Positions 14,287-31,343 of a stretch of DNA of 64,000 nt are shown in pieces. The position numbers and the translations under genes are program-made. The stretch comes from an uncultured Rickettsiales bacterium (GTDB lineage Bacteria; Pseudomonadota; Alphaproteobacteria; Rs-D84): contig URSG01000001.1 in NCBI GenBank assembly GCA_900550565.1, positions 14,456-78,455 of the forward strand, in the 5' to 3' direction. Every line of letters begins with the position of its first letter. Positions within the stretch are counted from its first letter, which is position 1. The notes beneath the pieces are model-generated. The model ran no database searches, was not told the DNA's origin, and was given only the letters and a program-made list of their open reading frames with translations.

Positions 14287-14287
14287 T

Positions 14288-15195: not shown

Positions 15196-15212
15196 AAATT
15201 ACCCCAATGCGA

Positions 15213-15854: not shown

Positions 15855-16549
15855 CAGTTCAATCTGTATGCGTTAAAATCCGTTATATAATATCCCAATG
15901 TGCGTGGATATGATTTTGTATCACGCCCGACGCGCATAAATGCGATAATCTGCATAGATGGTGTGACATTCCCAGAAATCGTCGCGCGCACACGCCACAT
16001 TCCGCCACCGTCACCAACGCCGCCAACCGGTTCAATTCGCAATGACGATGTATCCAGCACCAAACGTCCCGACGCCGCGGCAATATCCTGCCAGGTGGGG
16101 ACAACCTTGTATATAAATTTATTAAACACCTCGTCGCTGGTGGCACAACATATCGCATACGTTTTATCTGTGTATGCCGTCGCATTATCAGAAGCACAAT
16201 CCTGTTCGCGGTCACAGGTTTTCCACAATGCCTGGTTTTCAGCATCATCACCAACCGTGAACCAATCACGTGTGAAATTCGCAACCAATGATTCCTGCAT
16301 TGTTCGTGCCACAGTGTATTTCACCCTGCCGTGGGCGTGTTCAACCGTCGTCCAGGTTCCCGTCACGTTATCAACTGATATAATAAACGGTTCAACCGTC
16401 GCACTGCGCGTTGTCCATATCAGCAATCCGCACACGCATATAATCAGAAAAAACAGCAACGACACCAAAATAGACGCAGCACGGGAAACAGCAATGCGTT
16501 TTCCCGCTGGAAATGCCGGTGTATCAAAATTATTTGGATAATCCAACAA
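15854..16549 (-). CDS. virB8: Type IV secretion protein VirB8
   Basis: Cytoplasmic N-terminus, one TM, then TVEPFIISVDNVTG (the VirB8 PLKxxEPxVxxVDxxTG-type motif). C-terminal PRTLGYYITDFNAYR resembles NPLGFxVxxYR. TTG start behind a GGGGGGA SD. Confidence 0.65.
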   Translation of the reverse strand: MLDYPNNFDTPAFPAGKRIAVSRAASILVSLLFFLIICVCGLLIWTTRSATVEPFIISVDNVTGTWTTVEHAHGRVKYTVARTMQESLVANFTRDWFTVGDDAENQALWKTCDREQDCASDNATAYTDKTYAICCATSDEVFNKFIYKVVPTWQDIAAASGRLVLDTSSLRIEPVGGVGDGGGMWRVRATISGNVTPSMQIIAFMRVGRDTKSYPRTLGYYITDFNAYRLN

Positions 16550-17438: not shown

Positions 17439-17467
17439 AAAACGGGGCGTCTGCCCCGTTTTTTATT
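17439..17467. terminator. Bidirectional terminator at the left edge of the phage-like cluster
   Basis: ACGGGGC-GTCT-GCCCCGT hairpin with A-run and T-run. Confidence 0.75.
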
Positions 17468-17723
17468 TTATAACGGCGGTTTTAATCAGTGACACGTCAT
17501 CGCGAATTGTATCCAGTTTTATCTGTAATTGACCGATGCCTGTTTCCAATATCGTCGTCCGATTTTCCAACGTGGTAATACGCGTGTCTGCGCGTTGAAT
17601 ATCCGCCAATGATGAATCCTGGCGCGCGACCCAATAAATCAGACCGCCGATAAACGCGATTAAAAACCAACTGTCGCGCAGGGTTGCGATTATACCGCCC
17701 AGTCCGTTTGATTCCTGTTTCAT
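17463..17723 (-). CDS. Small membrane-anchored coiled-coil protein (phage-like cluster)
   Basis: One TM (WFLIAFIGGLIYWV) followed by a heptad-like C-terminus. ATGA overlap with the upstream gene. Confidence 0.45.
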   Translation of the reverse strand: MKQESNGLGGIIATLRDSWFLIAFIGGLIYWVARQDSSLADIQRADTRITTLENRTTILETGIGQLQIKLDTIRDDVSLIKTAVIK

Positions 17724-17926
17724 TTTCGCCCCCGTGATATCATATTTTCAATCAAATGCACCAATGCGCGCTGGGATTCCAGACTGCGTAATTCTGCGTC
17801 TGTGGCATTTGGCCCCAAAACACGTTCAATCGTCATTTTTCGCAGATGCTGTAATACCGCCGCACCGGCGGCGGTTGAAAACGCACGTGCATAATTTTGT
17901 TCTGTTTCGTTCATAGTTTTCCCCAT
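17720..17926 (-). CDS. 68-aa conserved-looking small phage protein, unknown function
   Basis: Co-oriented with, and 2 nt downstream of, the portal gene. Confidence 0.4.
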   Translation of the reverse strand: MGKTMNETEQNYARAFSTAAGAAVLQHLRKMTIERVLGPNATDAELRSLESQRALVHLIENMISRGRK

Positions 17927-17928
17927 TG

Positions 17929-19152
17929 TTAAATCAAGTTTTCAGACACCGCCATTTGTGCGATTGGCGCAATGTATTTCAGTTCTGCGTCACTGTTCAG
18001 CGCGATTGGCGCAATCACCCCACGGCGCGATAAAATCTGTAATCCGCGGTCGGTCAACGGCCGAATAAATTCGTGCAGCAATCGCCCGTATGTCGCGCCC
18101 AGAATTCGCATCATATCCGAATTGCGCGCCATAATTTCGGTCGCGGTCATTTCTTTTTCAGACAGCAATCCCAATCGGTCGGCCAACAACGCGTGGCGAA
18201 TCCGTTCGCGCAGGTCTTTTAATATTATTTGCGACACATCAAAATCTGCACCCGACGACAGCGGTGTCAGCCCTGATGACCCAACGGCCTTGGGGATAAT
18301 TGCGCCCGGCGTCAGGTTTATATTGTTCAGATTTATGACGCCATCATCGTCGGCCTGCCATATCCCAGACACGGCAATCGTTGCGTTTTTCAGCACCAGT
18401 TCAACAACCTTGTTCGCGGTTTTAATATCTGGCAATGCGCGCAAGACCGGCCCACGACCGTATTGTTCACCGCTTAAAACACTCCACCGGAAAATGATGT
18501 ATGGATTGGTTTCAAATGTGCCACGCGCAACGATATTGTTTTCCAGATTTCCCCCAACGTCCAACCACGCGGTGAATTCTGTGCCAACCAAACTCTGGAC
18601 CAGGCGCAACGGCGTTGCCGGGTCGTGCTTGATTTGGTCAGCAACATCGGCCGGTGGCGTCCAAGTTGGATATTTTTCCAGCACTTCGTGCGCCGGCATT
18701 GTCGCTGTGTGAAATACTGCGCCTGGCAAAATCGCAATATCGCGCATAGGCACGGCCGTGAACGAAAACGCCGACGACGCGCCGATTGGTGTTTCTGCCA
18801 TAAACAGACACGCCGTCCCCAGAATCACCAAATCCAGATAGCATTGATGAATGGTGGTATAAAAATTTGAATCGTTCAGGTTCGCACGCAACGCCGCCGT
18901 CGCTACATCTGCGTCGGGGGACGCGTCGCTTTCCGGGACCAGTGATATCCACAGCGATTCTGGTGGCGTCATCAGCGAATATATTGACGCCGCCAGGTTG
19001 TCCACCGCGTCTGCCGCGGTTGCGTCAAACAGTGTTGCGGCATCTGCGTCGTCGGTCGGCATAGTATATCGCATTGCCGCGTCCCAGCGATTTAACCACG
19101 GCGCACGCGCGTCCAGTGCACGCCGATACATTTTTTCTAAATCATTTTGCAT
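17929..19152 (-). CDS. Portal (head-to-tail connector) protein, T7 gp8-like
   Basis: The N-terminus YRRALDARAPWLNRWDAAMRYTMP...AVDNLAASIYSLMTP parallels the T7-type connector N-terminus (YERLKNDRAPYETRAQ..YTIP...LNNLASKL..ALFP, recalled from memory). Adjacent to the terminase. Confidence 0.7.
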   Translation of the reverse strand: MQNDLEKMYRRALDARAPWLNRWDAAMRYTMPTDDADAATLFDATAADAVDNLAASIYSLMTPPESLWISLVPESDASPDADVATAALRANLNDSNFYTTIHQCYLDLVILGTACLFMAETPIGASSAFSFTAVPMRDIAILPGAVFHTATMPAHEVLEKYPTWTPPADVADQIKHDPATPLRLVQSLVGTEFTAWLDVGGNLENNIVARGTFETNPYIIFRWSVLSGEQYGRGPVLRALPDIKTANKVVELVLKNATIAVSGIWQADDDGVINLNNINLTPGAIIPKAVGSSGLTPLSSGADFDVSQIILKDLRERIRHALLADRLGLLSEKEMTATEIMARNSDMMRILGATYGRLLHEFIRPLTDRGLQILSRRGVIAPIALNSDAELKYIAPIAQMAVSENLI

Positions 19153-19175
19153 ATTTTCTCCCTAGGTTTCGTTGG

Positions 19176-20024
19176 TTAAAGGTTAAAATCTGTATTTGCC
19201 GCGTATGTGCGGACGCTGCGCCCCGTGGGGCGAATTGGTGTTGGCGCAATACTGATTGCACCTGCAACTGCGTCCAGGCCGTCGTCGTGTCCGGCACTGC
19301 CGATTGGCGACCAGCCCAACATTTCTGCAACAAATGGTGTTTGGGTTATTCTGTGGTGCGCATACATACGCCCCGCCCCCAGAAATGGTTCTATTGCGTC
19401 CAAGATTCGGTCAACCTTGGGCCGATTATTGGTAATACGCATAATTGTAATTGGCGCGCCGACGCGACTGGCCGCGTCACGCATTATTTCAGGCAACGCA
19501 TTTCCGATTCCGTTTGTTTCAATCGTTATGCGACGCATATTGTGACGCGCCATAAATTCCAGCACACAATCGCACTGGCGTGCCAATGGGTGCGTGTCGT
19601 TGTCTGATACCGTCATATATAAAATATCGTGGACAAACACACACCGCGACGCGTCATCACGATACAGAACAACGCACACACTGCCGTCGCGACCGCGGCG
19701 TCCCGTTGACGGGTCCCAATACACCGCCGCGCCTGTGATTTTATGTTCGCCTATTTGCCCACTGCGCGCGTCAAATTCTGCGTCATATAATTGTACACCC
19801 CCTGGGTCCAGTCGCGCGCGTTCTGTGGAAACAGGTTCCAGCATCATTTGCGACGCAAAGTGCCGATTTCCAACCGCATTGCGCAAATCATCAATACGTG
19901 ACGGCGAAAATAATTCCGGCCACGCAGACGCACCTGTGTCGTCAACAATCGGAATTTTCAGCATTTTATATCCATGCAAAAAAGGCGTTGAAAACGTAAT
20001 TTTTTTAGATACTATATTGGACAT
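19176..20024 (-). CDS. Large terminase, C-terminal nuclease half (separate ORF)
   Basis: RNase-H-like nuclease motifs VYWDPSTGRRGRDGS, ITIETNGIG and GHDDGLDAV. Start set at ATG 20024 (MSNIVSKK) with AGGGG 8 nt upstream. The track ORF extends to 20099 with no support. Confidence 0.7.
   Translation of the reverse strand: MSNIVSKKITFSTPFLHGYKMLKIPIVDDTGASAWPELFSPSRIDDLRNAVGNRHFASQMMLEPVSTERARLDPGGVQLYDAEFDARSGQIGEHKITGAAVYWDPSTGRRGRDGSVCVVLYRDDASRCVFVHDILYMTVSDNDTHPLARQCDCVLEFMARHNMRRITIETNGIGNALPEIMRDAASRVGAPITIMRITNNRPKVDRILDAIEPFLGAGRMYAHHRITQTPFVAEMLGWSPIGSAGHDDGLDAVAGAISIAPTPIRPTGRSVRTYAANTDFNL
19988..20016 (+). promoter_or_regulatory. Candidate promoter giving a leaderless dnaB mRNA
   Basis: TTGAAA - 17 nt - ACTATA, with ATG 20023 only 6 nt downstream. 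No SD before dnaB. Confidence 0.35.
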
Positions 20025-21582
20025 GAACTTTACCCCTGGCGTTTTACCACATAATTTAGAGGCCGAACAGGCCGTCCTGGCTGCGGTATTGATGAACAAC
20101 CGTGCATTGGAACGCGTTTCTGAATTTCTGAAACCAGAAGATTTTTCGCACCCTGCGCACCAGGAAATATATAAATTGGCCGAACGTCAATTTGCGGCCG
20201 GTATTCCGTTTGATATTATTACGGCGAAAAATTACCTGGAACAACAGGGCGTACTGGAATCTGTTGGTGGCGTTGATTATTTGACCCAGTTGGCCGGGGC
20301 CGGCGCGACGGTTGTCAACGTTGAACAATATGCACGCATCGTCCACGAAACCGCACTGCGTCGCGAACTAATCCAGTTGGGCCAATCAATCACAGAAAAG
20401 GCTTTTGTTGAAGACCTGGATTCCCCTGTTTCTGCCCAGATAGAAATTGCCGAACAACAATTATTTAATCTGGCGTCTGTGGGCGAAACCCGACGCGAGG
20501 TGACGCCAATCGCAACCGCATTGGCCGGCGCATTAAAAGAGGCCGAGATTGCATACAAGGCCGACGGTAAATTGTCTGGTCTGACCACGGGGCTGAACGC
20601 GCTGGATAAATCCATCAGCGGTCTGCACCACAGTGATTTGATTATTATCGCAGGTCGTCCGGCGATGGGTAAAACAACGCTGGCAATGAACATTGCATTT
20701 AATGCCGCGAACGCAATTTTATCGGGTCGCGCAAACGAACAATACAAAGGCGCGGTCGTATTTTTCAGCCTGGAAATGTCCCAGGAACAGTTGGCGACAC
20801 GTGTATTATCATCTCAGTCCAAGATTTCGGCCACGTCTATGCGCGAAGGGTCATTTTCTGACGAAGAATTTTTAAAGATGTCACAATACGCATCGGCCAT
20901 CAGTCGCGTGCCACTGTTTATTGATGACACGCCTGGTATGTCGGTGCCAATGATGCGCACACGCGCACGTCGTCTGGCACGTAAAAGTGGCGGAATCGCA
21001 TTGATTGTGGTTGACTATCTGCAACTGATGACTGCGCCGGGTGGTCGCAAAAGCGATAATCGCGTCCAGGAAATTTCTGAAATCACACGTGGTCTGAAAA
21101 TGCTGGCCAAGGAATTAAATGTGCCGGTCATCGCCCTGTCCCAGTTATCGCGCAGTGTTGAAAATCGTGACGACAAACGACCCCAGTTGGCAGACTTGCG
21201 TGAATCTGGTTCTATTGAACAGGACGCGGACATTGTTATGTTCACATACCGCGAAGAATATTATCTGGACAACCGCGATCCGTCCCAACGCATTTCTGGC
21301 AACACCAACGAAAAGATTCAAGAAACGTATCAAAAACGTCTGGAACGCGCCCGGGGCAAGGCTGACATTATCATCGGCAAAAACCGTCACGGTCGCCCTG
21401 AAACGGTTCGGACTGCGTTTTTCGGCGATTACAGTTTGTTTGACAATCTGGACGAAATGGACGCGCGTGGCGAAAATGATTTTGCCCAAACACCGAAATC
21501 CCAGCCAAATCCTGATGTTGACAACGCAGGCGCATTTGAACAAATTGACGCATCGGCAATACCTGACGATATGGACTTATAA
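20023..21582 (+). CDS. dnaB: Replicative DNA helicase DnaB
   Basis: LPHNLEAEQAVLAAVL N-terminal motif, Walker A GRPAMGKTT, Walker B IVVDYLQLM, SQLSR, ESGSIEQDAD. The track ORF start 19594 is an antisense run-on over the terminase nuclease half. Confidence 0.92.
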   Translation: MNFTPGVLPHNLEAEQAVLAAVLMNNRALERVSEFLKPEDFSHPAHQEIYKLAERQFAAGIPFDIITAKNYLEQQGVLESVGGVDYLTQLAGAGATVVNVEQYARIVHETALRRELIQLGQSITEKAFVEDLDSPVSAQIEIAEQQLFNLASVGETRREVTPIATALAGALKEAEIAYKADGKLSGLTTGLNALDKSISGLHHSDLIIIAGRPAMGKTTLAMNIAFNAANAILSGRANEQYKGAVVFFSLEMSQEQLATRVLSSQSKISATSMREGSFSDEEFLKMSQYASAISRVPLFIDDTPGMSVPMMRTRARRLARKSGGIALIVVDYLQLMTAPGGRKSDNRVQEISEITRGLKMLAKELNVPVIALSQLSRSVENRDDKRPQLADLRESGSIEQDADIVMFTYREEYYLDNRDPSQRISGNTNEKIQETYQKRLERARGKADIIIGKNRHGRPETVRTAFFGDYSLFDNLDEMDARGENDFAQTPKSQPNPDVDNAGAFEQIDASAIPDDMDL

Positions 21583-21609
21583 TTATTTTACTTGCGGCGC
21601 GCGCAAAAA

Positions 21610-21628
21610 TTGACTAATATTTTGTCAA
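21610..21628. promoter_or_regulatory. Palindromic operator-like site overlapping a -35 element upstream of the tandem-HTH regulator
   Basis: TTGAC-TAATATTTT-GTCAA inverted repeat. The left arm is a TTGACT -35-like hexamer. Confidence 0.4.
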
Positions 21629-21655
21629 GAAATACCCAAGTGCAGGAGTTTTGCC

Positions 21656-22663
21656 ATGGCCCAAGAAGAAATCATTTTTCCAAATAATATCCGTAATATC
21701 CGTCTGAGTGCCGGAATGAAAATGACCGAACTGGCACGCCAGTCGCACCTGTCCCTGTCGGCTGTATCCAAAATTGAAAAGGGTGTGCGCCGTCTGAACC
21801 AGAAACAGTTGCTGAACATTTGCAATATTTTGGGTTGCAAATTATCTGATATTTTCATCAAAGAAGATGACGCCGTCGCTGACCAGTGGCAAAGTGAAAT
21901 CAAACGTCGTCTGAACGACAACGAAGACAGCGGCCTGAAAATATTCGGCAGTGGCCTGCGCAAGATTCGCCAACAAACCGGCAAAACCATCGCCCAGGCG
22001 GCCCAAGATGCCGGTATGACCCTGTCTGTCTATCACAAGATAGAGGTTGGACAACGCGAAATTTACCAAAATGAAATTGAACCATTGGCCAAATCCTTTG
22101 CGATGAGTGCCGAAAAATTATTTGATAAAATCGCCACATTGTATAAATCAGGCGAATTAAACAAACAAATAAACAAGGTCAAAGAACGCGTAAAATCCGT
22201 TCTGATTCCTGACAACCCGGCATCTGGGATTGATATGCACGGCGGACTGTATGGCGCAAAATTATATGACAGTGCGCGCAAAAAACTGGTTCCTGTGTTT
22301 GGCACACCGTCCGGCAAATCAATTATGTTCAAGAAATCTGATGAAACAATGATTGTTGCCCCAATGCCCCTAGAAGGACGCAGCGGAATATACGCCGTTA
22401 TGCCAAATTCAAAACGTATGGCCGGTTTTATCCCTGAACATTCGTATGTATTTGCCGACGCAACCCAGACACCGGCCGTTGGTGATTTGGCGGTTTGCAT
22501 TGACAGTGATTTTTCATCTTTGTCATCTGATGCGGTCGCAACCGCCCAGATTGTCAGTGTCCGCCAGGATTCCCGTGGCAAGGTGTATGGCCAAATTTCA
22601 TCACCTGATGAAAAAATCATCGGCAAAACTATGCACAAGGTCATTATGATTGTTATGGAATAA
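21656..22663 (+). CDS. Tandem-HTH (2x XRE-type) regulator with a LexA/CI-like C-terminal beta domain
   Basis: Two Cro/C1-type HTH repeats (IRNIRLSAGMKMTELARQSHLSLSAVSKIEKG; LRKIRQQTGKTIAQAAQDAGMTLSVYHKIEVG). The C-terminus aligns loosely to the S24 fold; Ser is possibly kept (NSKRM) but the expected Lys position reads Arg. Confidence 0.6.
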   Translation: MAQEEIIFPNNIRNIRLSAGMKMTELARQSHLSLSAVSKIEKGVRRLNQKQLLNICNILGCKLSDIFIKEDDAVADQWQSEIKRRLNDNEDSGLKIFGSGLRKIRQQTGKTIAQAAQDAGMTLSVYHKIEVGQREIYQNEIEPLAKSFAMSAEKLFDKIATLYKSGELNKQINKVKERVKSVLIPDNPASGIDMHGGLYGAKLYDSARKKLVPVFGTPSGKSIMFKKSDETMIVAPMPLEGRSGIYAVMPNSKRMAGFIPEHSYVFADATQTPAVGDLAVCIDSDFSSLSSDAVATAQIVSVRQDSRGKVYGQISSPDEKIIGKTMHKVIMIVME

Positions 22664-22686
22664 TCACCCAGCAAGAGAGAGAGAAT

Positions 22687-23367
22687 ATGAAAGCCAAAGC
22701 CAGCATAACCGCACAAAAGTTATTAAACCTGTATCGCCAAGAACATGTTATAATTGGCGGTTGGGCATCTGTAAACCCTGTCTTTGTAGCCGAAGCCGAC
22801 GATGACGTTATCCGCGAACTGCGCGCATTGCCAACGGGCAAAATGCTGATTCAGCACATTGAAAATCTGCGCAGTGGCCGCACCCAAATGGATACCATTG
22901 AACGCGGATTATTACCATACGGCGGACAAATGACCGAAACGGTTGTCACGGTGCCACTGACCCAGGACGAATGGCGCGAACTGGAAAATGGTATCAATTC
23001 GTTTGTGCCTGATGAAAATGGCCTGAAACAAATCCAGCAATTGGACGTTATACGCAAATTTGGCGACGAATGGCCGGTGGCAATTCATTCGGCACTTGCC
23101 CAGAAACCCGAACTGTCATCAAAATGGACCGTCATTACCAAAACATATCGCGCGTATTATCTGTGGCACGTTGCAACAGATATGCTGAACGAACCACTGT
23201 CTGAACGTGCGCGCGCGCAATTACAGGCCGATATGCCAGAATACGAAACGTATCTGCCGATGTTTGGCGACGCAGGCGACGCATTGCTGCACAAACTGCG
23301 CGCATTTATCAGCACACGCAACCCGATTGATACCGATAACGCGCCAAACGCACCGACGTCTATTTAA
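22687..23367 (+). CDS. Hypothetical 226-aa protein
   Basis: Good ORF 23 nt after the regulator. No motif recognised. Its stop overlaps the stop of the terminase ATPase half (TTAA). Confidence 0.5.
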   Translation: MKAKASITAQKLLNLYRQEHVIIGGWASVNPVFVAEADDDVIRELRALPTGKMLIQHIENLRSGRTQMDTIERGLLPYGGQMTETVVTVPLTQDEWRELENGINSFVPDENGLKQIQQLDVIRKFGDEWPVAIHSALAQKPELSSKWTVITKTYRAYYLWHVATDMLNEPLSERARAQLQADMPEYETYLPMFGDAGDALLHKLRAFISTRNPIDTDNAPNAPTSI

Positions 23368-23990
23368 TCGTCGTCTGTGCGGTAAATCGTGTCTGGGGTA
23401 TGTGGTGTGCCGATATAAATCATTGTGCCACCGGGCGACAATATAAAATCCAATTCACGCAACCGTTCACGCAACTTTTCACGTTTATCTGGGGTATTGC
23501 TGGTATTTGGAACCTCTACGTCATCACAGATAATTAAATCTGCGCGCGCACCGGTGATATTACCGGCAACCCCGGCGCATACAACCGACGGTTCGCGCAC
23601 GCCGATGGGACGATTTATCGTTATTCGGTCATTTGACCACGTTCGTCGCCCCGTCGGAATCATATCTGCACAGCGCGGATGATTTTCCAGAATATTACGA
23701 ATATGCCCAACCATCCGCGATGACAATGTGCTTTCTGCGGATAAAATCAGAATACGCGATTCTGGGCGCAGCCCCAGGACGCACGCAGCAAAAATTCCAA
23801 CGACGGTAGATTTGCCAGAATGCCGAAATGCCATCAACAAACCGCGATTTGGTGGCGACGTCCAAACGTCAACCAAGAATTTCATTATGCGCCGATGATG
23901 TTCAGGCGTCGTCATTCCCAGCAATGCGTTCCACTCGTCCATAAAATCCAGAAACGCCGTTGTCATCGCATTTTCAATTTGGTGTGACAT
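23364..23990 (-). CDS. Large terminase, N-terminal ATPase half (separate ORF)
   Basis: Walker A AFRHSGKST, Walker B ADLIICDDVE, motif III IYIGTPHT. Ends with a genuine TAA after ...IYRTDDD. Confidence 0.75.
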   Translation of the reverse strand: MSHQIENAMTTAFLDFMDEWNALLGMTTPEHHRRIMKFLVDVWTSPPNRGLLMAFRHSGKSTVVGIFAACVLGLRPESRILILSAESTLSSRMVGHIRNILENHPRCADMIPTGRRTWSNDRITINRPIGVREPSVVCAGVAGNITGARADLIICDDVEVPNTSNTPDKREKLRERLRELDFILSPGGTMIYIGTPHTPDTIYRTDDD

Positions 23991-24005
23991 CGCCCCACCC
24001 TTTTG

Positions 24006-24353
24006 CTATGCGACCAGACTGTCAAATTTATCCATCAGTTTTTTCAGTAAATTTGGTCTGGTTGTTTTTACCTGGCGCAATTTTTCCAATGACTTGCGTC
24101 GTTTTTCATCGTATGGCGCAGACGTTTCAGATTGCAGGCGACGCAACACGGCATCTTCGGTCATACCGCGATTTGACATTCCCGACGCGCCATATTTTGC
24201 GCGCTGGGCCGCCAGTGCTTTTTTCACCAGATTCGTTTTTGTTTTTTCATCTGCGGCCATATCCGCCAAGATTTTTTTGCGTGCAGTGCTGGCATCGCTT
24301 TTGCTTTTTTTATAGTCCAAGACATCTTGAACATCAGAAACCAGTTGTCCCAT
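24006..24353 (-). CDS. Highly charged 115-aa protein, unknown (TerS or internal-protein position)
   Basis: Lys/Glu/Ala-rich, directly upstream of the terminase ATPase half. No motif recognised. Confidence 0.4.
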   Translation of the reverse strand: MGQLVSDVQDVLDYKKSKSDASTARKKILADMAADEKTKTNLVKKALAAQRAKYGASGMSNRGMTEDAVLRRLQSETSAPYDEKRRKSLEKLRQVKTTRPNLLKKLMDKFDSLVA

Positions 24354-24376
24354 TTTTATCCCCTTTGCTTGATTTG

Positions 24377-26104
24377 TTAAACGGTATAGAACCCATACAT
24401 CGTGACAGACATCACTGTGATATTGGACGCATCACACGATGTGATTTGCCACGGCCACGAAACGCACTGGCGCGTCCACCCCAATGTGTTGATTGAAACA
24501 TCACCTGTGAACCCAGGATTTGTTTCTGTGTAAATTTCATCGGGCAATTTTGCACAAACGTTGTTTATCGTGATTGATTTTGTATCACTGACACGTGCAG
24601 TAATTTTGCGAATACGCGCATGCGACGCGTTATGCCCACTGCCCCGTAATGGAATCCCAGCGGCAGCGACGGCAAATTTATAATCTGGCGCATCACACAG
24701 TGCGCTGTGCGAAAACTGTTCCAGGTAATATTTATCATCGCGCGCAACAACAACAAATGTTTTGTCCGCAGATACCGCAACAGATTTGAATTCGCCATTT
24801 GTTTTATACTGTGACCACGCCGAAATCCCCAACGCCGTATTTTTATTCAGAACCGCCATATTGCCCGACGACATAACAACAAACAACTGGCGATTGGTGC
24901 TGTTATACGCAATATCCACCGGCGTCTGCATCAAATGCTTGGCATACGCGCACAGGTCGGTTGCGTTATAATGTTCGCCCAACTCGTCCAGGCTCAGTTC
25001 ACGAATATCACGCATAGACGCGGCAACGAATACGGTCGCCCCTTCTATCTTTTGCGGTGGCAGATAACGCGACGACACACTGCCCACAGACGTGTGCTGT
25101 TTTATATCCACCGACGACGGGGTCAGTGGTTTATTCGCGATTGCCCATTCGCCAACCGTTGTCAAAATTTGCAGATTATCCGCACTGACAACCGTGCAAA
25201 TCTGTTGTCGCTGGGCCGACAGCAATGTGATAAATATCGCCTGGTCGTCCAGCCCGGTTCCAACGTCAAAGTTATTGTGGCGACCGACCTGGGACAGCCA
25301 TACCCCAGCAGGATAATCGCGCGCGCCACCAAAAACCAATCTGTCTTGGTGAAATGTGATACTGACCGGCCACCCACGACGCGCACTGAACGCGGCCTGA
25401 CGCCAATCTGTCACCGGGCCAGACGGCAACGAAAACGTCCCGTTCGTATGGGCGGTTGCGCACTTTGTGTTGGTGACCGATGTTATTGTCCACTGGCGAT
25501 TTAATACAAAGAACCGTCCGCCAATATCATCAGACGTCCAAAATGCCCGGTTCGTTGTAAATGTCGCATAGTTGTTGCCAGCGCTGTTTGCCGTGACACT
25601 TATTTCAATGCCGTCCGTATCATCAAATTTCACAAACGGAATATTTACAGACAAATCAGAATCGTTGCGCGAAAAGTTAAATAACGACAACGTAAATCCG
25701 TCTGCGTTTTTCTGTAATACACGCGGCTGGAAATCAGGGTGTACAAAAATCATCGTTCCAAAACGCTGGGCGTATTGCAGCGACGCAATCGCGTCTGTCG
25801 GCCACGGCGACGCAATATCTTGGATTTGTGTTGCGCCGGCAAAGACCAAGATATGCTCGTCTGTGATTGCCAACAAGTATTCTTGATTTGGCCCCACAGA
25901 AAACGGCACCAAACGCACAGACGCGTCCAGTTCGGCAATTTCTGTCAGGCCTGCGCGACGCGTTATTCCGCCCCCAGACATAACGTCCATATTCACCAGT
26001 TGCCCCAGTCCATTTAAATTATCGTGCGCATAGAATTCGCGCGAAATTTCGCCGTCTGCAAAAGAATTTTGGGTGTTTATAAAATTTGCCATTTTGTTCC
26101 CCAC
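24377..26104 (-). CDS. Large tail protein, tail-tubular-B/nozzle-like
   Basis: 575-aa beta-rich protein immediately after the adaptor-like gene. Its N-terminal pattern (N..F..GE.S......N......N.......GG..RR.G) is typical of podovirus nozzle proteins. Confidence 0.45.
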   Translation of the reverse strand: MGNKMANFINTQNSFADGEISREFYAHDNLNGLGQLVNMDVMSGGGITRRAGLTEIAELDASVRLVPFSVGPNQEYLLAITDEHILVFAGATQIQDIASPWPTDAIASLQYAQRFGTMIFVHPDFQPRVLQKNADGFTLSLFNFSRNDSDLSVNIPFVKFDDTDGIEISVTANSAGNNYATFTTNRAFWTSDDIGGRFFVLNRQWTITSVTNTKCATAHTNGTFSLPSGPVTDWRQAAFSARRGWPVSITFHQDRLVFGGARDYPAGVWLSQVGRHNNFDVGTGLDDQAIFITLLSAQRQQICTVVSADNLQILTTVGEWAIANKPLTPSSVDIKQHTSVGSVSSRYLPPQKIEGATVFVAASMRDIRELSLDELGEHYNATDLCAYAKHLMQTPVDIAYNSTNRQLFVVMSSGNMAVLNKNTALGISAWSQYKTNGEFKSVAVSADKTFVVVARDDKYYLEQFSHSALCDAPDYKFAVAAAGIPLRGSGHNASHARIRKITARVSDTKSITINNVCAKLPDEIYTETNPGFTGDVSINTLGWTRQCVSWPWQITSCDASNITVMSVTMYGFYTV

Positions 26105-26110
26105 AGTTTG

Positions 26111-26629
26111 CTAAAATCGTGAATTTATCAGTGAAAAGTTTTCAATCTTTGACGGCGATGACGTTGTGCCATCAATAAATTTTGCCGTCTGTAATTCTGT
26201 TTCGTATAACGCTGCCAACATTCTGAACATCGCCTGGTCACCGGTCAGTGGCACACTGAATTCCATCGCCAGTTTTGTTGCCGCCACAGACACAAAATAC
26301 CCAGGAAATTCGTCTGGGGCAATACGCGCCACCCCAATCACAGAAACAGTATCCGTTGGTGCAATAATTTTGTTTCCGATAACATTACCCACAGATTTAA
26401 TCACACGCAGACATTCGGTTGGCAATACAAAATCCCCATCAGAATTTCTGACTAAATCAAACCGGCGACACGCAAATCGCCACGGATGAACCGCAATCAA
26501 CGCATCTATGACTGGGTCAAACAGCGTGCGCCCCAGTTGTGCCGCCGCACTGTCGTCCATCAATGACTGAATTGGTTGTTCGCCCAGTTTTAACAACGCC
26601 ATTGAACATAAATCTATTTTGGTTAACAT
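26111..26629 (-). CDS. Tail tubular protein A / adaptor-like protein
   Basis: The N-terminus CSMALLKLGEQPIQSLMDDS...HPWRFA matches the AL..LGe.PI.SLdd......W.F pattern of podovirus gp11-like adaptors (from memory). Confidence 0.5.
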   Translation of the reverse strand: MLTKIDLCSMALLKLGEQPIQSLMDDSAAAQLGRTLFDPVIDALIAVHPWRFACRRFDLVRNSDGDFVLPTECLRVIKSVGNVIGNKIIAPTDTVSVIGVARIAPDEFPGYFVSVAATKLAMEFSVPLTGDQAMFRMLAALYETELQTAKFIDGTTSSPSKIENFSLINSRF

Positions 26630-26650
26630 TTCCGTTTTTCCTTGTGTCTA

Positions 26651-26681
26651 AAAAAATTATGGGGCGTTTTTATGCGCCCCA
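26651..26681 (-). terminator. Intrinsic terminator inside the late-gene string (after the capsid and 76-aa genes)
   Basis: On the minus strand: GGGGCG-loop-CGCCCC hairpin followed by AUAAUUUUUU. Confidence 0.6.
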
Positions 26682-26699
26682 ATTTATAAATCAGTAAAA

Positions 26700-26930
26700 T
26701 TATCCCAACGCTGCCGTTGTGACTGTGCCAGACGCCACACTTATCGTCTTGATTGACGTTTTGTCTGACGCATTGATGATAACAATGTCGCCAGTATTCA
26801 TCAGTGTGTTCACAGCATTAAAATAACCACTGGCGGTGATTGTTGCCAATGTCACATTTTCTGCATAGTGCCACAGCGTAAAGCCATTTGCGTATGCAAT
26901 CACAGATAAATTTTTATTCTGAAAAGCCAT
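26700..26930 (-). CDS. 76-aa protein after the capsid gene (decoration/accessory head protein position)
   Basis: Co-oriented, 22 nt after the capsid gene. No motif recognised. Confidence 0.4.
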   Translation of the reverse strand: MAFQNKNLSVIAYANGFTLWHYAENVTLATITASGYFNAVNTLMNTGDIVIINASDKTSIKTISVASGTVTTAALG

Positions 26931-26952
26931 CTATTTTTCCTTTGGTTATTTT

Positions 26953-27786
26953 TTATTCTGCGTCGGTGTCTTTGCATTTGATACGAACGATACCGTCGCC
27001 ATCAATCAGAACTGCGCCCTGGGACATACTGTTGCTGATAAAGTGCGCTGCACGTTCACCGTGCCACGAAATATCCGTTTTAACTTCCTGGCCACAGGCG
27101 TGTCCGACACTGGACGCGTGATAAATAAAGCAATCACGTTTTGTCGCGTCAGACAACGGCAACGCGTTATACAGCACCCATGTAATTCCCAACCATTTCT
27201 TGGACGCGCCCCCAGAAATCAACGGCAAATCATTATTGCCGACATAATCTGCGGAAACGAATTCTGTGATTTTCAATAATTCGTTCCACTGATGCACGCC
27301 AACAACGGCAAAGCGACGACCATCGTCTGGAATATCTTTGCTGTTCAATGTTTCAACCGCTGACAAAATCAAATCCTTGCTCAGACCGGCCGAATAATCA
27401 CCCACAGATGCACTGGCACCGTTCATCGCATTTACAATCAGTTCGTCGGTTTTTCGGCCCAACGCATACGCGCCTGCACTGGCCACAACACGGCGTTCAT
27501 CAATATTGGTTTTCAATTCGTCCAACGCATCAACCCAATCACCGGCATAGTAATCTTGCAGAACGCATTCAACCGGTTCGTGATTCAGATTCATAACTGG
27601 CACAATGCCGTGACGTGATTTTGTCGCCGCAGTGCCACGTCCAACCTTTTGGAACGTTGTTGATGCACCGACAACACCTGATTTACTGCGCACAGTTCCG
27701 CGCAATTTTGTGCCCATTTGCTGATATGCCAAATGGACATCTGCTTCAAATTGTTTTACAAAAACTTGGTCTATGGAAACAGACAT
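26953..27786 (-). CDS. Major capsid protein
   Basis: 277 aa, between the scaffold and adaptor genes. N-terminal pattern FVKQFEADVHLAYQQMGTKLRGTV...STTFQKVG typical of small podovirus/HK97-fold coat proteins. AAGGGGAAAAA SD. Confidence 0.7.
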   Translation of the reverse strand: MSVSIDQVFVKQFEADVHLAYQQMGTKLRGTVRSKSGVVGASTTFQKVGRGTAATKSRHGIVPVMNLNHEPVECVLQDYYAGDWVDALDELKTNIDERRVVASAGAYALGRKTDELIVNAMNGASASVGDYSAGLSKDLILSAVETLNSKDIPDDGRRFAVVGVHQWNELLKITEFVSADYVGNNDLPLISGGASKKWLGITWVLYNALPLSDATKRDCFIYHASSVGHACGQEVKTDISWHGERAAHFISNSMSQGAVLIDGDGIVRIKCKDTDAE

Positions 27787-27963
27787 TATTTTTCCCCTTG
27801 GTTAAAATTTCTTGGTTATGGCGCAATAAATTGCGTCAAAAAATTTCATCACACGGTTATGCGCCGACGCGCGCCGCAATGAAATACAAAACCGGGTTCC
27901 AATAAATTCGGAATTATCCGTAAAAAAAAATTTCAGTCGCACCGATAAGATACGACTGATACT

Positions 27964-27996
27964 TTTTTCAAATACAAACCCCACCAAACGGTGGGG
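27964..27996 (-). terminator. Intrinsic terminator after the H1-like gene
   Basis: On the minus strand: CCCCACC-GTTT-GGTGGGG followed by UUUGUAUUU. Confidence 0.65.
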
Positions 27997-28002
27997 AAAA
28001 TA

Positions 28003-28362
28003 TTATTTTTTCTTGGCTGCTGGTTTCTTTGCAACTGGCTTTTTAGCAGGTGCTTTTTTCGCAACAACTTTTTTTGCAGCAGGTTTTTTTACCGCTACTT
28101 TTTTAGCAACAGGTTTTTTTGCTGCAACTTTTTTTGCAACTGGTTTCGCTGCTGGTTTCTTTGCAACAACTTTTTTTGCTGCTGGCTTTTTAACCGCTAC
28201 TTTTTTAGCAACTGGTTTTTTCGCCGCTACTTTCTTTGCAGCTGGTTTTGCTGCTGGTTTCTTTGCAGCAGGTTTTGCCGCTGGTTTTTTTGCCGCTGGT
28301 TTCGCAGCAGGTTTTTTTGCAGCAACTTTTTTCGCTGCTGGCTTCAAGAATGTGAATGCCAT
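28003..28362 (-). CDS. Histone-H1-like Lys/Ala/Pro-repeat basic protein (119 aa)
   Basis: [26 protein letters not shown]... built almost entirely of [10 protein letters not shown] units. ATG 28362 behind an AAGGAGAG SD is preferred over the track start 28395. Has its own terminator. Confidence 0.7.
28010..28340 (-). repeat. Coding tandem repeats (12-15-nt AAKK/PAAK units; a ~25-aa block [25 protein letters not shown] occurs twice)
   Basis: Visible periodicity in the DNA and in all three translated frames on both strands. Confidence 0.85.
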
Positions 28363-28465
28363 TCTTCTCTCCTTTTTACTTTTTGGATAGAACAAATTTT
28401 TTTGTTCTTACTTTGTATTTTATACGAAACATAAAACAGAGTAAAGAAGAAAGTGCATTTTTTTA

Positions 28466-29128
28466 TCACGAATATAATTTTTTAAATCCATTTTCTATTT
28501 TTCTGACGTATTCAACATCGTGATCACGCCAATATTTTGGATTACGCATCATACGTCGCAAATCATTATCAGATAAATTTACATCATCACCATCGGCGGT
28601 TTGAACGTCTGGTTCCATTGATTGCATCATTCTGTATATGCCTTGGATTCCCTGGGGTGTAGCGCACAACGCATCAAACGCATCACGTGGTAAAAACTTT
28701 TCACCAAACGCGTTTATCTGTTTAATTGCTTCGTTCATTTTATCTGTTCCACCAAAGAAATTTTTCAGTTCAGAAATTGCTGCGGCTTCGTTTTGTTGTG
28801 CGAACAAATCAGTTATCACTGGTGATAAAAATTCTTGGGCAATGTCATAAATTTTTGTGACCTGAGACGACGTCAACCCAATTTCAAAAAATTTTGCGCG
28901 TAAATTTTCATCATCAAACAAATCATTTTTCGGATATTCATCGGCGGCATTTGGCACGCCAATCGCGCGTCTGAAACGATTGCGCGTATCATCATCGGCA
29001 TCATCAGACGGCACACTTATCATCGTTCCGATTTTCTTTTCCAGTGCAGAATACGATTTTATCAACGCATCAGCGTTTAATGTTCCGTCGTCATTTTGAA
29101 ATTTTTCAGGAATTTTTTCCATTTTCAT
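28466..29128 (-). CDS. Capsid scaffolding/assembly protein
   Basis: The acidic helical protein starts IPEKFQNDDGTLNADALIKSYSALEKKIG, a pattern common in podovirus scaffold proteins. Located upstream of the capsid gene. Confidence 0.55.
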   Translation of the reverse strand: MKMEKIPEKFQNDDGTLNADALIKSYSALEKKIGTMISVPSDDADDDTRNRFRRAIGVPNAADEYPKNDLFDDENLRAKFFEIGLTSSQVTKIYDIAQEFLSPVITDLFAQQNEAAAISELKNFFGGTDKMNEAIKQINAFGEKFLPRDAFDALCATPQGIQGIYRMMQSMEPDVQTADGDDVNLSDNDLRRMMRNPKYWRDHDVEYVRKIENGFKKLYS

Positions 29129-29322
29129 TTTCCTTTGTTTTGATTATTTGATTTGCGAATAAAATAAATTCCACCCAACGTGAACAATGCCTGGCACAGA
29201 ACAAACACATCACTGTCGCCGACCAAATACGCCGCAATCGCAGACATTGCGCCAACTGCTGACATAATGTGTGTGCGCCTGTCTGCCAGCCAGCCACCAC
29301 GAATAATTTTTTGCATATTCAT
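29125..29322 (-). CDS. Holin-like small membrane protein (two TM helices, basic C-terminus)
   Basis: 65 aa; TM1 IMSAVGAMSAIAAYLV, TM2 VFVLCQALFTLGGIYFI; tail KSNNQNKGK. Follows the lysin gene. Confidence 0.45.
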   Translation of the reverse strand: MNMQKIIRGGWLADRRTHIMSAVGAMSAIAAYLVGDSDVFVLCQALFTLGGIYFIRKSNNQNKGK

Positions 29323-29324
29323 TT

Positions 29325-29741
29325 TTAATCCTGTAAATAAAACAGTATTCCATCAACATCGGCGATATAGCCACGCGACATCGCCCACTGTGGCATTTCA
29401 TCTGTGCGATGAAAACGTGTCGCGCCAAAGCACGAATCGCCCAGGTTTCCACGCAACATTCGTCGCGCCACACGCAAACACATTTGAAATGCACGCGAAT
29501 CCGGGGCAACGCCCAATAATTTATGTCGCGCGTTATCTGGGCATAGCGATGGGAACAACGTGGCATCGTTTATAATTACATCTGGGGCAACGCCGGTGGC
29601 ACGTGATATATTCGCTATCATTGACGTGAACGCTTCTGTCACAGACAATGATGTTGCACCTGTCTCGGCATAAACAACGCGCGCGATTTTATATGCCGCG
29701 CCCTGTGACGCATCTGGATTTTTTATCAGTTCAAGTTGCAT
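29325..29741 (-). CDS. Cell-wall hydrolase (SleB/CwlJ Hydrolase_2-like), putative endolysin
   Basis: ARVVYAETGATS...MIANISR pattern resembling the YAEARGE...NR motif of the SleB-type hydrolase domain. First gene of the cluster. Confidence 0.5.
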   Translation of the reverse strand: MQLELIKNPDASQGAAYKIARVVYAETGATSLSVTEAFTSMIANISRATGVAPDVIINDATLFPSLCPDNARHKLLGVAPDSRAFQMCLRVARRMLRGNLGDSCFGATRFHRTDEMPQWAMSRGYIADVDGILFYLQD

Positions 29742-29834: not shown

Positions 29835-29936
29835 CAGAATCTTTACTGTTGATGTTTATTATAATATCACAAATCACATAAAAAGTCAAGCGCACATTTT
29901 ATCATCACGTCACACGCCCCAGAATTCGGGCATTTA

Positions 29937-30602
29937 TTACATACTGATTTCGTCACCGTATGCCAATAAATATTGCGTTCCGCGCCGCAAGACCAGCGCA
30001 CCAGATTCATTTATTCCAATCAATTCTACGTTTTCACCACGATAACGCACAACCTTGTTCAATGCCGTCGCCAGTTCCATCCACCGCGCACGCACCGTGG
30101 CAAAATCTGTTCGCATCCATTTGTCCAGATTGCGCATCAAACGATTTAATAAATCCGTCCGTTCTATGTCGGCATAGCGTTCCAATTTAGTCGTCTGGTA
30201 TTCAGGCACCGTTGGATTAGATTTGATATTTATTCCAATGCCAACAACCACAAACGCACCGGCATATTCAATCAAGACCCCACAAACCTTGGCACCGTCA
30301 ATCAGAATATCGTTCGGCCATTTAATTGTTGGACGCACCCCAAATGAAATCATCGTTTCGGCAATCGCAACCGCCACAACATACGCCAGGCGTGGGTCGC
30401 GATTTTCAGACGCAAAAATAAAACTGGCATACAAATTACCGTGATGCGAAACCCATGTCCGACGATACCGACCACGACCTGCCGATTGTGCCTGGGCAAC
30501 GACAACGGTGTGTCCACGCGCCGCACCACGCGCAATCAAATCCAGCGCGTATGTCTGGGTACTGGGGATTTTATCAAACGAAATCAGTTTATACCCGGCC
30601 AA
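29937..30602 (-). CDS. birA: Biotin--[acetyl-CoA-carboxylase] ligase, group I (no N-terminal HTH)
   Basis: GRGRYRRTWVS (GRGRxGRxW) motif. 221 aa, so no room for a DNA-binding domain. Confidence 0.88.
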   Translation of the reverse strand: MAGYKLISFDKIPSTQTYALDLIARGAARGHTVVVAQAQSAGRGRYRRTWVSHHGNLYASFIFASENRDPRLAYVVAVAIAETMISFGVRPTIKWPNDILIDGAKVCGVLIEYAGAFVVVGIGINIKSNPTVPEYQTTKLERYADIERTDLLNRLMRNLDKWMRTDFATVRARWMELATALNKVVRYRGENVELIGINESGALVLRRGTQYLLAYGDEISM

Positions 30603-31038
30603 TTTTATACACCCCGTTGATGTTTTTAATCAAATCGTGTCCATATACCCGGCGCAGTTGATATATCGCCGTGTCAACCGTATGGGTTGTTGCGCGTGGC
30701 GAATACCCCAGTGCCGCACGCAGTTGCGTGCCGGTCATACCGCCACTTTTCTGTAATAAAACGATTATTTGGCGTTGCAGCGGTGCCAACGTCACATTAT
30801 GTCCGAACACCGATTGAATAATATTTGTATTATCCATCGCCGCCAGTATCAAGGACTTTAATTCCAATGGACTGCAATGATTTGGGACATTTATTTCATC
30901 AAAATTGACCGTTGCAATATCAGGCGCATCTACCACCACCGCATTTAAATCGGCCAGCACCGAACGCCACACCGCATCGCCAGAATAGATTTTGATTCCA
31001 GTCAACATACAATCAGGATAATAGATGAAATTATTCAT
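30589..31038 (-). CDS. Winged-helix DNA-binding protein (OmpR/PhoB-type effector-like C-terminus, no receiver domain)
   Basis: C-terminal LAPLQRQIIVLLQKSGGMTGTQLRAALGYSPRATTHTVDTAIYQLRRVYGHDLIKNINGVYKI. Overlaps the birA start by 14 nt. Confidence 0.55.
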   Translation of the reverse strand: MNNFIYYPDCMLTGIKIYSGDAVWRSVLADLNAVVVDAPDIATVNFDEINVPNHCSPLELKSLILAAMDNTNIIQSVFGHNVTLAPLQRQIIVLLQKSGGMTGTQLRAALGYSPRATTHTVDTAIYQLRRVYGHDLIKNINGVYKIGRV

Positions 31039-31097: not shown

Positions 31098-31343
31098 TTA
31101 TTCGCGACTGGTATCACGTGGGTCAATAAACTTGGTAAAATCGCCGATATTTGCACCCGTTGACGATAAAATTTTGGAAATGCTGTTTGTTGACGGCCAG
31201 CGTGGTTGTCCTTCGCGGGACCAACGCTTGCTGCGGTTAAATGTGGTTGGGTCCAGTCCACTGCACTTTGCCAACCCAGAACACGACATACCGTGTTCAT
31301 CAGCGAATCGTTCTATTGCGCGCCATACATCTTCGTGTGTCAT
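31098..31343 (-). CDS. Stand-alone HTH protein resembling the N-terminal domain of alphaproteobacterial S24/LexA-like phage repressors
   Basis: GMSCSGLAKCSGLDPTTFNRSKRWSREGQPRWPSTNSISKIL pattern. No peptidase domain follows. Confidence 0.6.
   Translation of the reverse strand: MTHEDVWRAIERFADEHGMSCSGLAKCSGLDPTTFNRSKRWSREGQPRWPSTNSISKILSSTGANIGDFTKFIDPRDTSRE

Follow-up and report, generated by a model that had tools for sequence, protein, structure and literature searches.

A podovirus-derived gene cluster fixed in gut Rs-D84 Alphaproteobacteria, most likely encoding gene transfer agent-like particles

A 64,000-nt stretch of the genome of an uncultured Rickettsiales bacterium (GTDB lineage Rs-D84), called the window in the following, was analyzed, and all coordinates are positions in it unless another locus is named. 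The element under study occupies positions 17463-29741 on the minus strand. The data show a domesticated, vertically inherited and selected podovirus-derived cluster, which is fixed in the chromosome of Rs-D84/'Candidatus Enterousia'. The cluster most likely makes particles resembling gene transfer agents (GTAs). Profile searches against PHROG, Pfam, NCBIfam and PDB, which were used to identify the open reading frames (ORFs), revealed a full head (portal, scaffold and capsid), a short tail hub (adaptor and nozzle), a packaging enzyme (the large terminase TerL) and a lysis cassette.

A domesticated, vertically inherited cluster under selection

Relatives of the capsid protein were sought in one genome per GTDB species. 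This gave 320 positive genomes, of which the best 80 were retrieved (loci L001-L080; further relatives are labelled L124-L131, L162 and L163). All of these best 80 genomes, which include a circular 958-kb chromosome, come from uncultured Alphaproteobacteria of the gut that bear the label 'Candidatus Enterousia' or 'uncultured Rickettsiales'. The capsid has 3284 relatives in the database, many of them 84-88% identical and located on contigs of up to 1 Mb. Gene order, orientation and the division of TerL into two genes are identical in all 80 species genomes and in about 40 copies from IMG/VR. The common order, shared by all loci of sufficient extent, is (o81)-u149-birA-lysin-holin-scaffold-H1-capsid-g76-adaptor-nozzle-g115-TerL-N-(u226, HTH2 and dnaB on the opposite strand)-TerL-C-portal-Bbp19-g86, where TerL-N and TerL-C denote the ATPase and the nuclease half of the terminase. 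Past g86 and past o81, the synteny is rearranged between species. An earlier, first-pass annotation of the window had reasoned that a conserved chromosomal position in related genomes would argue for domestication, and the same order next to birA was indeed found in all 80 retrieved genomes.

The ORF lengths are kept and no pseudogenes were found. Pseudogenization, which the first-pass annotation had named as evidence that would contradict its view, is thus not seen in the structural genes, which are intact in about 70-80 species. The ratio of non-synonymous to synonymous substitution rates (dN/dS), calculated for the window and its seven closest relatives, lies between 0.03 and 0.22 across the element and between 0.03 and 0.165 in the flanking housekeeping genes. 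Pairwise protein distances within the element rise together with those of host proteins encoded nearby (Mantel r = 0.82, reached by 0 of 999 permutations), the element proteins diverging slightly slower. Within the species, seven strains were compared, namely the window and six contigs (348-862 kb) that stem from independent metagenomes of the human gut. Architecture and position are identical in the six contigs, and no empty-site variants were found among those read. In the seven strains, the variable codons are synonymous to non-synonymous at 26:1 in the capsid gene, 20:2 in TerL-N, 20:3 in TerL-C and 35:7 in the portal gene. In the collection, 519 blocks contain a g115 protein identical to that of the window.

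Because of these results on conservation, selection and co-divergence, an active prophage and a decaying remnant are both excluded. The first-pass annotation had offered a tiny prophage or one of the smallest tailed-phage genomes as one reading and a domesticated or GTA-like particle as the other. The former does not agree with vertical inheritance and the lack of integrase and att sites; the latter is strongly supported at the genomic level by the conservation in 80 genomes, the purifying selection, the co-divergence and the six contigs.

A functionless cryptic prophage remnant, kept since deletions would hit interleaved essential host genes, is a very improbable explanation. It would be in keeping with the embedded host-type dnaB and H1-like genes, the interrupted TerL and the loss of the small terminase (TerS), the fibre and the ejection proteins. 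However, hitch-hiking guards against deletion and not against non-synonymous change or frameshift, and the structural genes are intact in about 70-80 species, with dN/dS down to 0.03, within-species ratios of up to 26:1 and retained catalytic motifs in both TerL halves. Rs-D84 genomes measure 0.75-1 Mb, are about 90% coding and encode a minimal metabolism, and phage genes go unmentioned in their published description (PMC12306168). In genomes of below 1 Mb and about 90% coding density, 12 kb of junk would therefore not be expected to survive.

An active mini temperate podovirus or a helper-dependent mobile element, which excises, replicates via dnaB and spreads horizontally, is hardly credible. 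Many copies of the cluster are found in IMG/VR as viral contigs of 10-13 kb, and homologous compact clusters lie at different chromosomal sites in two genera of Acetobacteraceae. The IMG/VR contigs are nevertheless cut-outs of the chromosomal locus, because those reaching past the lysin run into birA and its neighbours. Moreover, synteny with birA holds in every species, the divergence of the element follows that of host genes, its position is the same in independent strains, and dnaB is a host equivalog and not of phage type. As the first-pass annotation had noted by eye, integrase and att repeats are absent: no integrase or recombinase Pfam match, and no excisionase, was found in the element or within 10 kb on either side, and a search for att-like direct or inverted repeats at 15.5-32 kb gave only the coding repeats of the H1-like gene and chance matches. 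The nearest tRNA is about 9 kb away.

An autonomous podovirus of the T7-like/Autographiviridae type, which would have a genome of 30 kb or more, is equally not what the gene set describes, with about 9 kb of late genes and neither replication and transcription genes nor TerS, fibre or internal core proteins found; in addition, the locus is inherited vertically. The same holds for a phage satellite (PICI/P4-like), as structural genes are present and an integrase and a replication initiator are absent.

Homologous clusters, gene content and the divided terminase

The nearest cultured phage is Hodr (Pelagibacter phage EXVC031P, 34 kb), whose capsid is 45% identical; Vibrio phages of about 32 kb carry a capsid of the same family with 32% identity. 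Hodr shows the order TerL-portal-Bbp19-like-...-scaffold-capsid-adaptor-nozzle, which is that of the element once circularly permuted. The element thus represents a permutation of the Hodr order in which the circle is cut between scaffold and portal module, and the portal-first circle drawn in the first-pass annotation has to be revised, as TerL precedes the portal in the closest phage. Hodr and the Vibrio phages are three times larger than the element; their TerL is intact, and they also carry genes for replication and early functions as well as large genes for tail and ejection proteins.

Furthermore, a homologous cluster of about 14 kb is present in Acetobacteraceae, where it was read in Roseomonas sp. 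OT10 (L162, CP087719, 4023026-4043859) and Siccirubricoccus sp. G192 (L163). It shares portal, scaffold, capsid (57% identical), adaptor, nozzle, TerL and lysin with the element, and its order is S24 repressor, three small genes, portal, scaffold, capsid, adaptor, nozzle, a 146-amino acid (aa) protein, tailspike, a 112-aa protein, TerL and lysin. Like the element, it lacks an integrase within 10 kb and adjoins a repressor, whose helix-turn-helix (HTH) domain is 52% identical to o81. It differs in having an intact TerL, a full-length tailspike of 787 aa, an S24 repressor and a TerS-sized ORF before TerL, in the position of the portal upstream of the scaffold, and in lacking the dnaB and H1 insertions. 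The flanks differ between the two genera examined. The TerL call of Siccirubricoccus has only 307 aa. The cluster also occurs in Teichococcus, Caldovatus and others, and capsids from about 10 named genera are 75-86% identical to an Acetobacteraceae-type query capsid from IMG/VR. No paper describing this cluster or the Enterousia locus was found. The Acetobacteraceae cluster may constitute a second GTA-like family that has so far escaped notice; as Roseomonas and other carriers can be cultivated, the family would become open to experiments.

All ORFs listed in the first-pass annotation were found where it had placed them, and the virion, packaging and lysis identities it had proposed were borne out by the profile searches. 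The genes described next are encoded on the minus strand. The lysis cassette starts with the endolysin (29325..29741), a SleB/Hydrolase_2-like cell-wall hydrolase of 138 aa with a weak match to PF07486 (E 0.005) and one to phrog_938 (3.8e-5). It shares 31% identity with its Hydrolase_2 counterpart in the Roseomonas cluster, and its dN/dS is 0.22. The second gene (29125..29322) codes for a holin-like protein of 65 aa, for which two hydrophobic helices and a charged C-terminus were read from the sequence. Family searches with this protein gave no match; its gene is intact in 70 loci and has a dN/dS of 0.17.

The head module consists of a T7-type scaffolding protein of 220 aa (28466..29128; PF05396 1.3e-9; phrog_3742; dN/dS 0.165), the major capsid protein with HK97 fold and 277 aa (26953..27786; PF19821 5.9e-72; phrog_3437 2.4e-73) and the T7-type portal of 407 aa (17929..19152; PF12236 3.4e-81, profile positions 2-439 of 489; dN/dS 0.034). 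The capsid is 84-97% identical across the 80 species, with a dN/dS of 0.029. The portal is shortened at both ends: it has about 60-170 residues fewer than its relatives of 469-581 aa and lacks the C-terminal 50 positions of the Pfam profile. The tail hub is formed by an adaptor of 172 aa, which resembles tail tubular protein A (26111..26629; phrog_394 3e-30; PF17212 weak; dN/dS 0.125), and by a nozzle of 575 aa, which resembles tail tubular protein B (24377..26104; phrog_376 1.3e-80; dN/dS 0.14) and is 32% identical to its Roseomonas homologue over the full length.

In addition, four small proteins belong to the cluster. The 76-aa conserved virion-module protein g76 (26700-26930; phrog_18004) has homologues 3′ of the capsid gene in the related IMG/VR loci L126-L131; an 81-aa ORF occupies this position in Hodr, and tblastn gave no match between the two. 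The charged 115-aa protein g115 (24006..24353) takes the position of T7 gp13-like internal or assembly proteins. It is weakly similar to the 146-aa protein found after the nozzle in Roseomonas, and PDB and family searches gave no informative match. A Bbp19-like small phage protein of 68 aa (17720..17926; PF25181 7e-11) follows the portal, as is also the case in the relatives and in Hodr. The last gene codes for g86 (17463-17723), an 86-aa protein for which a membrane anchor (one transmembrane helix) and a coiled coil were read from the sequence. Its phrog matches are weak, one being to an XhlA-type hemolysin, and it is possibly a lysis accessory or spanin-like protein.

The terminase is encoded by two genes on the minus strand. 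The ATPase half TerL-N (208 aa, 23364..23990) matches phrog_38 at profile positions 268-459 (1.1e-47; dN/dS 0.065), and the nuclease half TerL-C (282-307 aa, with about 282 aa for 19176..20024) matches it at positions 473-713 (2.8e-35; also PF22530 and PF17289; dN/dS 0.144). In all 74-77 loci, 3.3 kb lie between the separate ORFs for the two domains. The Walker A, Walker B and C-motif of TerL-N are retained in 77/77 loci, and the acidic motifs of the nuclease in 68-74 of 74 loci. When concatenated, the halves align as one piece with intact TerL of T7-like phages. TerL-N terminates 4-5 residues past the ATPase domain, and comparison with the 507-510-aa TerL of the high-GC clusters places the break in a linker of 8-14 residues, from '...GTPH..TIY' to '..PFL.GY..L.IP..D', without loss of residues.

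This division is unusual, because a library of 1.8 billion proteins contains relatives with 44-51% identity that mostly measure 450-510 aa. Nothing pertinent was found in the literature on split large terminases. The split predates Enterousia, since L124 and L126 also carry separated halves. In L124 (51% GC), dnaB and a gene for an 834-aa protein (L124:7367-9871 region), which has no Pfam match, lie between the halves, replacing HTH2 and u226. In L126 (38% GC), the halves are separate ORFs with only a 270-bp spacer (8787-9055) and no dnaB. This spacer contains a perfect TTGACA-17-TATAAT promoter with a short, terminator-ended transcript of about 100 nt, and an Rfam search with it gave no match. 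L126 also retains a gene with the N-terminal domain of the T7 tail fibre and a GH108 lysozyme gene, and an ABC-F gene, instead of the portal, follows its TerL-C. With ATPase and nuclease domains as separate, individually selected proteins, the locus offers a natural experiment on the terminase motor.

Nested host genes and transcription signals

Between TerL-N and TerL-C, a host operon (20023..23367) is located on the plus strand. It comprises dnaB (20023-21582), the gene HTH2 for a regulator with two HTH domains (21656-22663; HTH_3 twice) and u226 (22687-23367), which encodes an all-helical protein of 226 aa. DnaB scores 607 bits on the replicative helicase equivalog NF006606 (cutoff 540) and stays under the phage_DnaB cutoff, and its closest PDB structures are cellular DnaBs. 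By these matches, dnaB is a host-type alphaproteobacterial replicative helicase gene, and its NCBIfam equivalog score rules out that the block represents phage replication genes. The first-pass annotation had taken it for the only early genes of the element, which can no longer be maintained. It is unusual for a viral operon to enclose genes that are essential to the host, here the dnaB operon and the gene for a nucleoid protein.

The dnaB promoter (TTGAAA-16-TACTAT, 19988-20015) is invariant across species and in most loci ends 7 nt before the ATG; a leaderless mRNA is therefore implied. On the opposite strand, the same DNA encodes the N-terminus of TerL-C (19988-20025). The start codons of TerL-C and dnaB, both ATG, share the sequence CATG, and the Shine-Dalgarno sequence of TerL-C lies inside dnaB codons. 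The nuclease half thus most likely starts at the ATG at 20024 rather than at the TTG at 20099, which had been chosen in the first annotation. At the other end of the operon, the stop codons of u226 and TerL-N share the sequence TTAA, and in 77/77 loci these stop codons overlap or are at most 7 nt apart. In three loci (L036, L045 and L046), an insertion gives dnaB a leader with a Shine-Dalgarno sequence. The spacer between dnaB and HTH2 (21583-21655) holds the palindrome TTGACTAATATTTTGTCAA, which may act as operator or promoter of the double-HTH regulator gene; the spacer shares a TTGACT -35 element with the late promoter described below.

No match to u226 was found in Pfam, PHROG or NCBIfam, the PDB profile search was empty, and Foldseek returned no PDB match for its AlphaFold2 (AF2) model (pLDDT 77). 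The idea that u226 is a Q-like antiterminator thus found no support in family, PDB or fold searches.

A further gene of host character lies in the head module between scaffold and capsid. It codes for an H1/HC2-like DNA-binding protein of 130 aa with AAKKP repeats (28003-28395, minus strand; PF07382 1e-15; NF038053) and has its own conserved promoter (28445-28417) and two terminators. The gene occurs in 71 loci and is missing from the outgroup L126; it is an independently transcribed insertion in the head module. Its 5′ leader contains the perfect palindrome AGAACAAA-N4-TTTGTTCT (28389-28408), which is conserved across species. In the 64-kb window this is the sole copy, and no regulon signal was seen.

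The late promoter (29861..29889, minus strand) was found by a consensus scan downstream of birA and faces the lysin. It consists of the -35 element CTTGACTT and the extended -10 element TGTGATATTAT, and both hexamers are invariant in 28 species (pattern CTTGACTT ... TnTGnTAnnnT). Two intrinsic terminators in tandem (29835-29817 and 29803-29783, minus strand) follow after about 25 nt and precede the ribosome-binding site and the start codon of the lysin. In a covariation test, 87.8% of the cells in their stems were paired, compared with at most 57% in slid controls, and 46 double-change cells were counted where 16 were expected (0/500 shuffles as high). The strong terminators on this side had been assigned to the host in the first annotation; they lie, however, downstream of the conserved lysin-facing promoter.

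Another set of signals occupies the non-coding DNA that separates the H1-like gene from the capsid gene (27800..27996, minus strand). The H1 terminator (27996-27979) is followed by a sequence-conserved hairpin with a T-run (27959-27933), and a third T-run hairpin directly precedes the capsid ribosome-binding site. Within 27800-27960, 5′ of the capsid gene, lies the structured motif GGAYAA(stem-loop)CCC ... TGGCGC(stem-loop)GCATAACC, which is present in L001-L080 and in L125 (2690-2840). RNAalifold detected compensatory changes in 21/29 of its pairs. No Rfam match to the motif was obtained, with nothing credible at E values up to 5 across 26.6-30 kb, and over the window only tRNAs reach the gathering threshold. 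The motif could be a cis-acting antitermination, processing or attenuator RNA. Moreover, a conserved covarying terminator follows g76 (26681-26660, minus strand), and a bidirectional terminator (17439-17462) closes the element after g86. A conserved sigma-70 promoter for TerL-C and portal was sought inside dnaB, and none was found. Expression of the whole gene set would thus seem to need antitermination.

In its layout, the leader resembles the PR'-tR' region of phage lambda, which is under Q antitermination: in both, a strong, constitutive-looking promoter is followed by terminators within about 100 nt, before the lysis and morphogenesis genes. It differs in that no Q-like or GafZ-like protein was recognised, in the two tandem terminators and in the additional structured RNA 5′ of the capsid gene. 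The short leader transcript could equally be a small RNA.

Outside the boundaries set in the first annotation, a candidate for the cognate repressor remnant was found. This is o81 (31098-31343, minus strand), an HTH-only protein of 81 aa (HTH_26 1.3e-4) with a median identity of 88% in 68 loci; a terminator follows at 31070-31052. Its match to the S24 repressor flanking the Roseomonas cluster (214 aa) covers residues 1-73 of the latter with 52% identity (E 5e-27), and the S24 self-cleavage domain is missing from o81. By this likeness, o81 is a remnant or homologue of the CI/LexA-type repressor of the Acetobacteraceae cluster. Next to it, u149 (30589..31038, minus strand; 149 aa) overlaps the start of birA. 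It shows a weak match to Trans_reg_C (E 0.02) and weak PDB profile matches to winged-helix regulators, and is possibly a winged-helix protein itself. The order o81/u89-u149-BirA-lysin is found in all loci extending that far, and u149 is syntenic with the element in all loci, although its membership in the element is uncertain.

Relation to gene transfer agents, proposed function and surroundings

GTAs are known from few independent origins, and nearly all of the studied ones are siphovirus-like. The present locus would be an independent, podovirus-derived domestication, fixed across a gut lineage with genomes of less than 1 Mb. It takes about 1.4% of the chromosome, which strongly suggests that exchange by particles, or lysis, is of importance even where genomes are extremely reduced.

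Like RcGTA and CcGTA, the locus is a phage-derived cluster of structural, packaging and lysis genes fixed in an alphaproteobacterial chromosome. It is resident, vertically inherited and under purifying selection, carries no integrase, excision or own replication functions and contains internal terminators, as these GTAs do. The expression of CcGTA is reported to require an activator and antitermination (bioRxiv 10.1101/2023.11.12.565669). Unlike RcGTA, the locus has a T7-type portal and a scaffold and lacks a prohead protease, tail tube, tape measure and TerS, and its TerL is split. No homology to the siphovirus head-tail module of RcGTA was seen among the Pfam and PHROG matches. The locus is podovirus-derived, whereas RcGTA is siphovirus-derived. 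RcGTA-like clusters are described as kept in the reduced genomes of alphaproteobacterial protist endosymbionts (PMC9254644); those clusters are RcGTA homologues, whereas the Enterousia locus is an independent domestication of another phage type. For BaGTA of Bartonella, a portal gene of 1863 nt and a TerL gene of 1344 nt are published, and these sizes, by which alone the two were compared, differ from those found here. BaGTA and podoviruses are not discussed by Esterman et al. (2021).

A podovirus-like GTA of a gut bacterium has been proposed in Faecalibacterium prausnitzii (FpGTA), where 40-nm particles, DNA of about 9 kb and proteomics were reported as experimental support (Nat Commun 2026, PMC12946183). 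By its description, it resembles the locus in its compact operon of 10.5 kb with TerL, portal, scaffold, capsid and short-tail proteins (PMC12946183). FpGTA differs in belonging to the Firmicutes, in having a candidate TerS gene and, in another operon, genes for fibre and receptor-binding proteins, and in lacking a split TerL and embedded host genes.

Based on these data, the locus is predicted to make DNA-filled, short-tailed and fibre-less particles, which are released by lysis. A signal in a subpopulation of cells would relieve the HTH regulators and/or supply an antitermination activity, and RNA polymerase starting at the late promoter would then pass the two leader terminators and subsequently the internal ones. 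Proheads would assemble, and the ATPase and nuclease halves of TerL would cooperate as a two-polypeptide terminase. Without a small terminase to pick a pac or cos site, the heads would take any available (host) DNA ends. Adaptor and nozzle would seal the head, holin and endolysin would lyse the cell, and the GTA-like particle would be released. Late transcription probably runs antisense through dnaB, because TerL-C and portal lie beyond the host operon and neither a terminator nor a conserved promoter is found in between. Such an antisense transcript would couple particle production to a shut-down of the replication operon.

Only tentatively can a more far-reaching model be put forward, in which the locus would be an order-wide, obligately kept podovirus-derived GTA with a two-subunit terminase and a late transcript antisense through the dnaB-regulator operon, so that making particles would be interlocked, both physically and in transcription, with a stop of chromosome replication. 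The structured RNA 5′ of the capsid gene and the leader terminators would allow antitermination by a factor or by RNA, and the locus would be the most reduced member of a widespread, hitherto unrecognised alphaproteobacterial family of podovirus-type GTAs including the Acetobacteraceae clusters.

Several observations weigh against the production of GTA-like particles. No TerS, receptor-binding or ejection protein is recognisable in the element, and delivery into a recipient cell is hard to picture without the latter two. The tailspike stub described below is cleanly gone in the window, its conspecifics and 49 other loci. To our knowledge, no two-polypeptide TerL has been shown to package DNA. 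There are six terminators on the coding strand, yet no antiterminator was recognised by Pfam, PHROG, PDB or fold searches, and the single-sequence AF2 model of u149 (pLDDT 34) is uninformative.

With regard to the missing functions, no TerS-sized ORF lies 5′ of TerL here, whereas the Roseomonas (L162) and Siccirubricoccus (L163) clusters have one. A stub gene of about 175 aa is located between g115 and TerL-N in 68/117 related loci (e.g., L001:13793-14320). Its first 100 residues correspond to the N-terminal anchor of tail fibres and tailspikes (phrog_1640 1.7e-13), and it also matches the N-terminus of the 787-aa pectate-lyase-like spike of Roseomonas (E 1e-11). In the window, only 15 nt (23991-24005) separate g115 and TerL-N. 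The first-pass annotation, which had reported no tail fibre, is thus correct for this genome and not for most relatives, which keep the remnant gene. An assembly error as the cause of the missing fibre was ruled out, since the six independent conspecific contigs lack it as well. In the lineage of the window, a tailspike gene that was truncated beforehand has thus been lost, and the patchy distribution of the stub suggests repeated loss or gain. As tailspike, ejection proteins and the C-terminal barrel of the portal have been lost, any delivery of DNA would have to use functions of the recipient or factors encoded elsewhere.

Alternatively, the locus could be a chromosomal 'structural-gene depot', whose particles would be exploited by another Enterousia replicon, such as a plasmid or a phage-like element, with TerS, fibre or ejection functions. 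The missing functions are exactly those of specificity (TerS, receptor-binding protein and ejection proteins), and the tailspike anchor stub persists in 68/117 loci as if it docked a separately encoded partner. However, no partner element was found in the 64-kb window or its flanks, and the stub is dispensable in 50 lineages in which selection on the remaining genes is not relaxed. This purely conjectural scenario is considered quite improbable.

A functional domesticated cluster could also serve a role other than DNA transfer, such as programmed altruistic lysis that sets free DNA or nutrients, a killing or adhesion particle directed at partner or competitor cells, or an intracellular capsid for the compaction or storage of DNA. 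The degenerated receptor-binding and ejection modules next to strongly selected head, packaging and lysis genes would agree with this, as would the gene for a DNA-condensing H1-like protein inside the head module and the proposed lifestyle of the Rs-D84 hosts as partner-dependent symbionts or parasites with very reduced metabolism (PMC12306168). On the other hand, portal, both terminase domains, adaptor and nozzle are conserved, a set needed only for filling and sealing a DNA-containing head, and a toxin or enzymatic cargo is not recognisable. The H1-like gene, moreover, looks like a host gene and not like a virion component, because it has its own promoter and terminators. Such a role is rated as unlikely, and the production of GTA-like particles is preferred.

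Finally, two observations concern the DNA to the left of the element. GC skew and gene orientation flip near 14000-14400: the plus strand carries the genes on the left side, and the minus strand most of those on the right side. Replication may terminate in this region, at a distance of about 3 kb from the element, and in that case the dnaB operon would be oriented head-on to replication. Between bamA and yraN (14404-16549), three minus-strand ORFs of 263, 213 and 231 aa were found, the last of which shows a weak VirB8-like match. In some related genomes these ORFs are present with 38-79% identity, where they are located elsewhere relative to the element.

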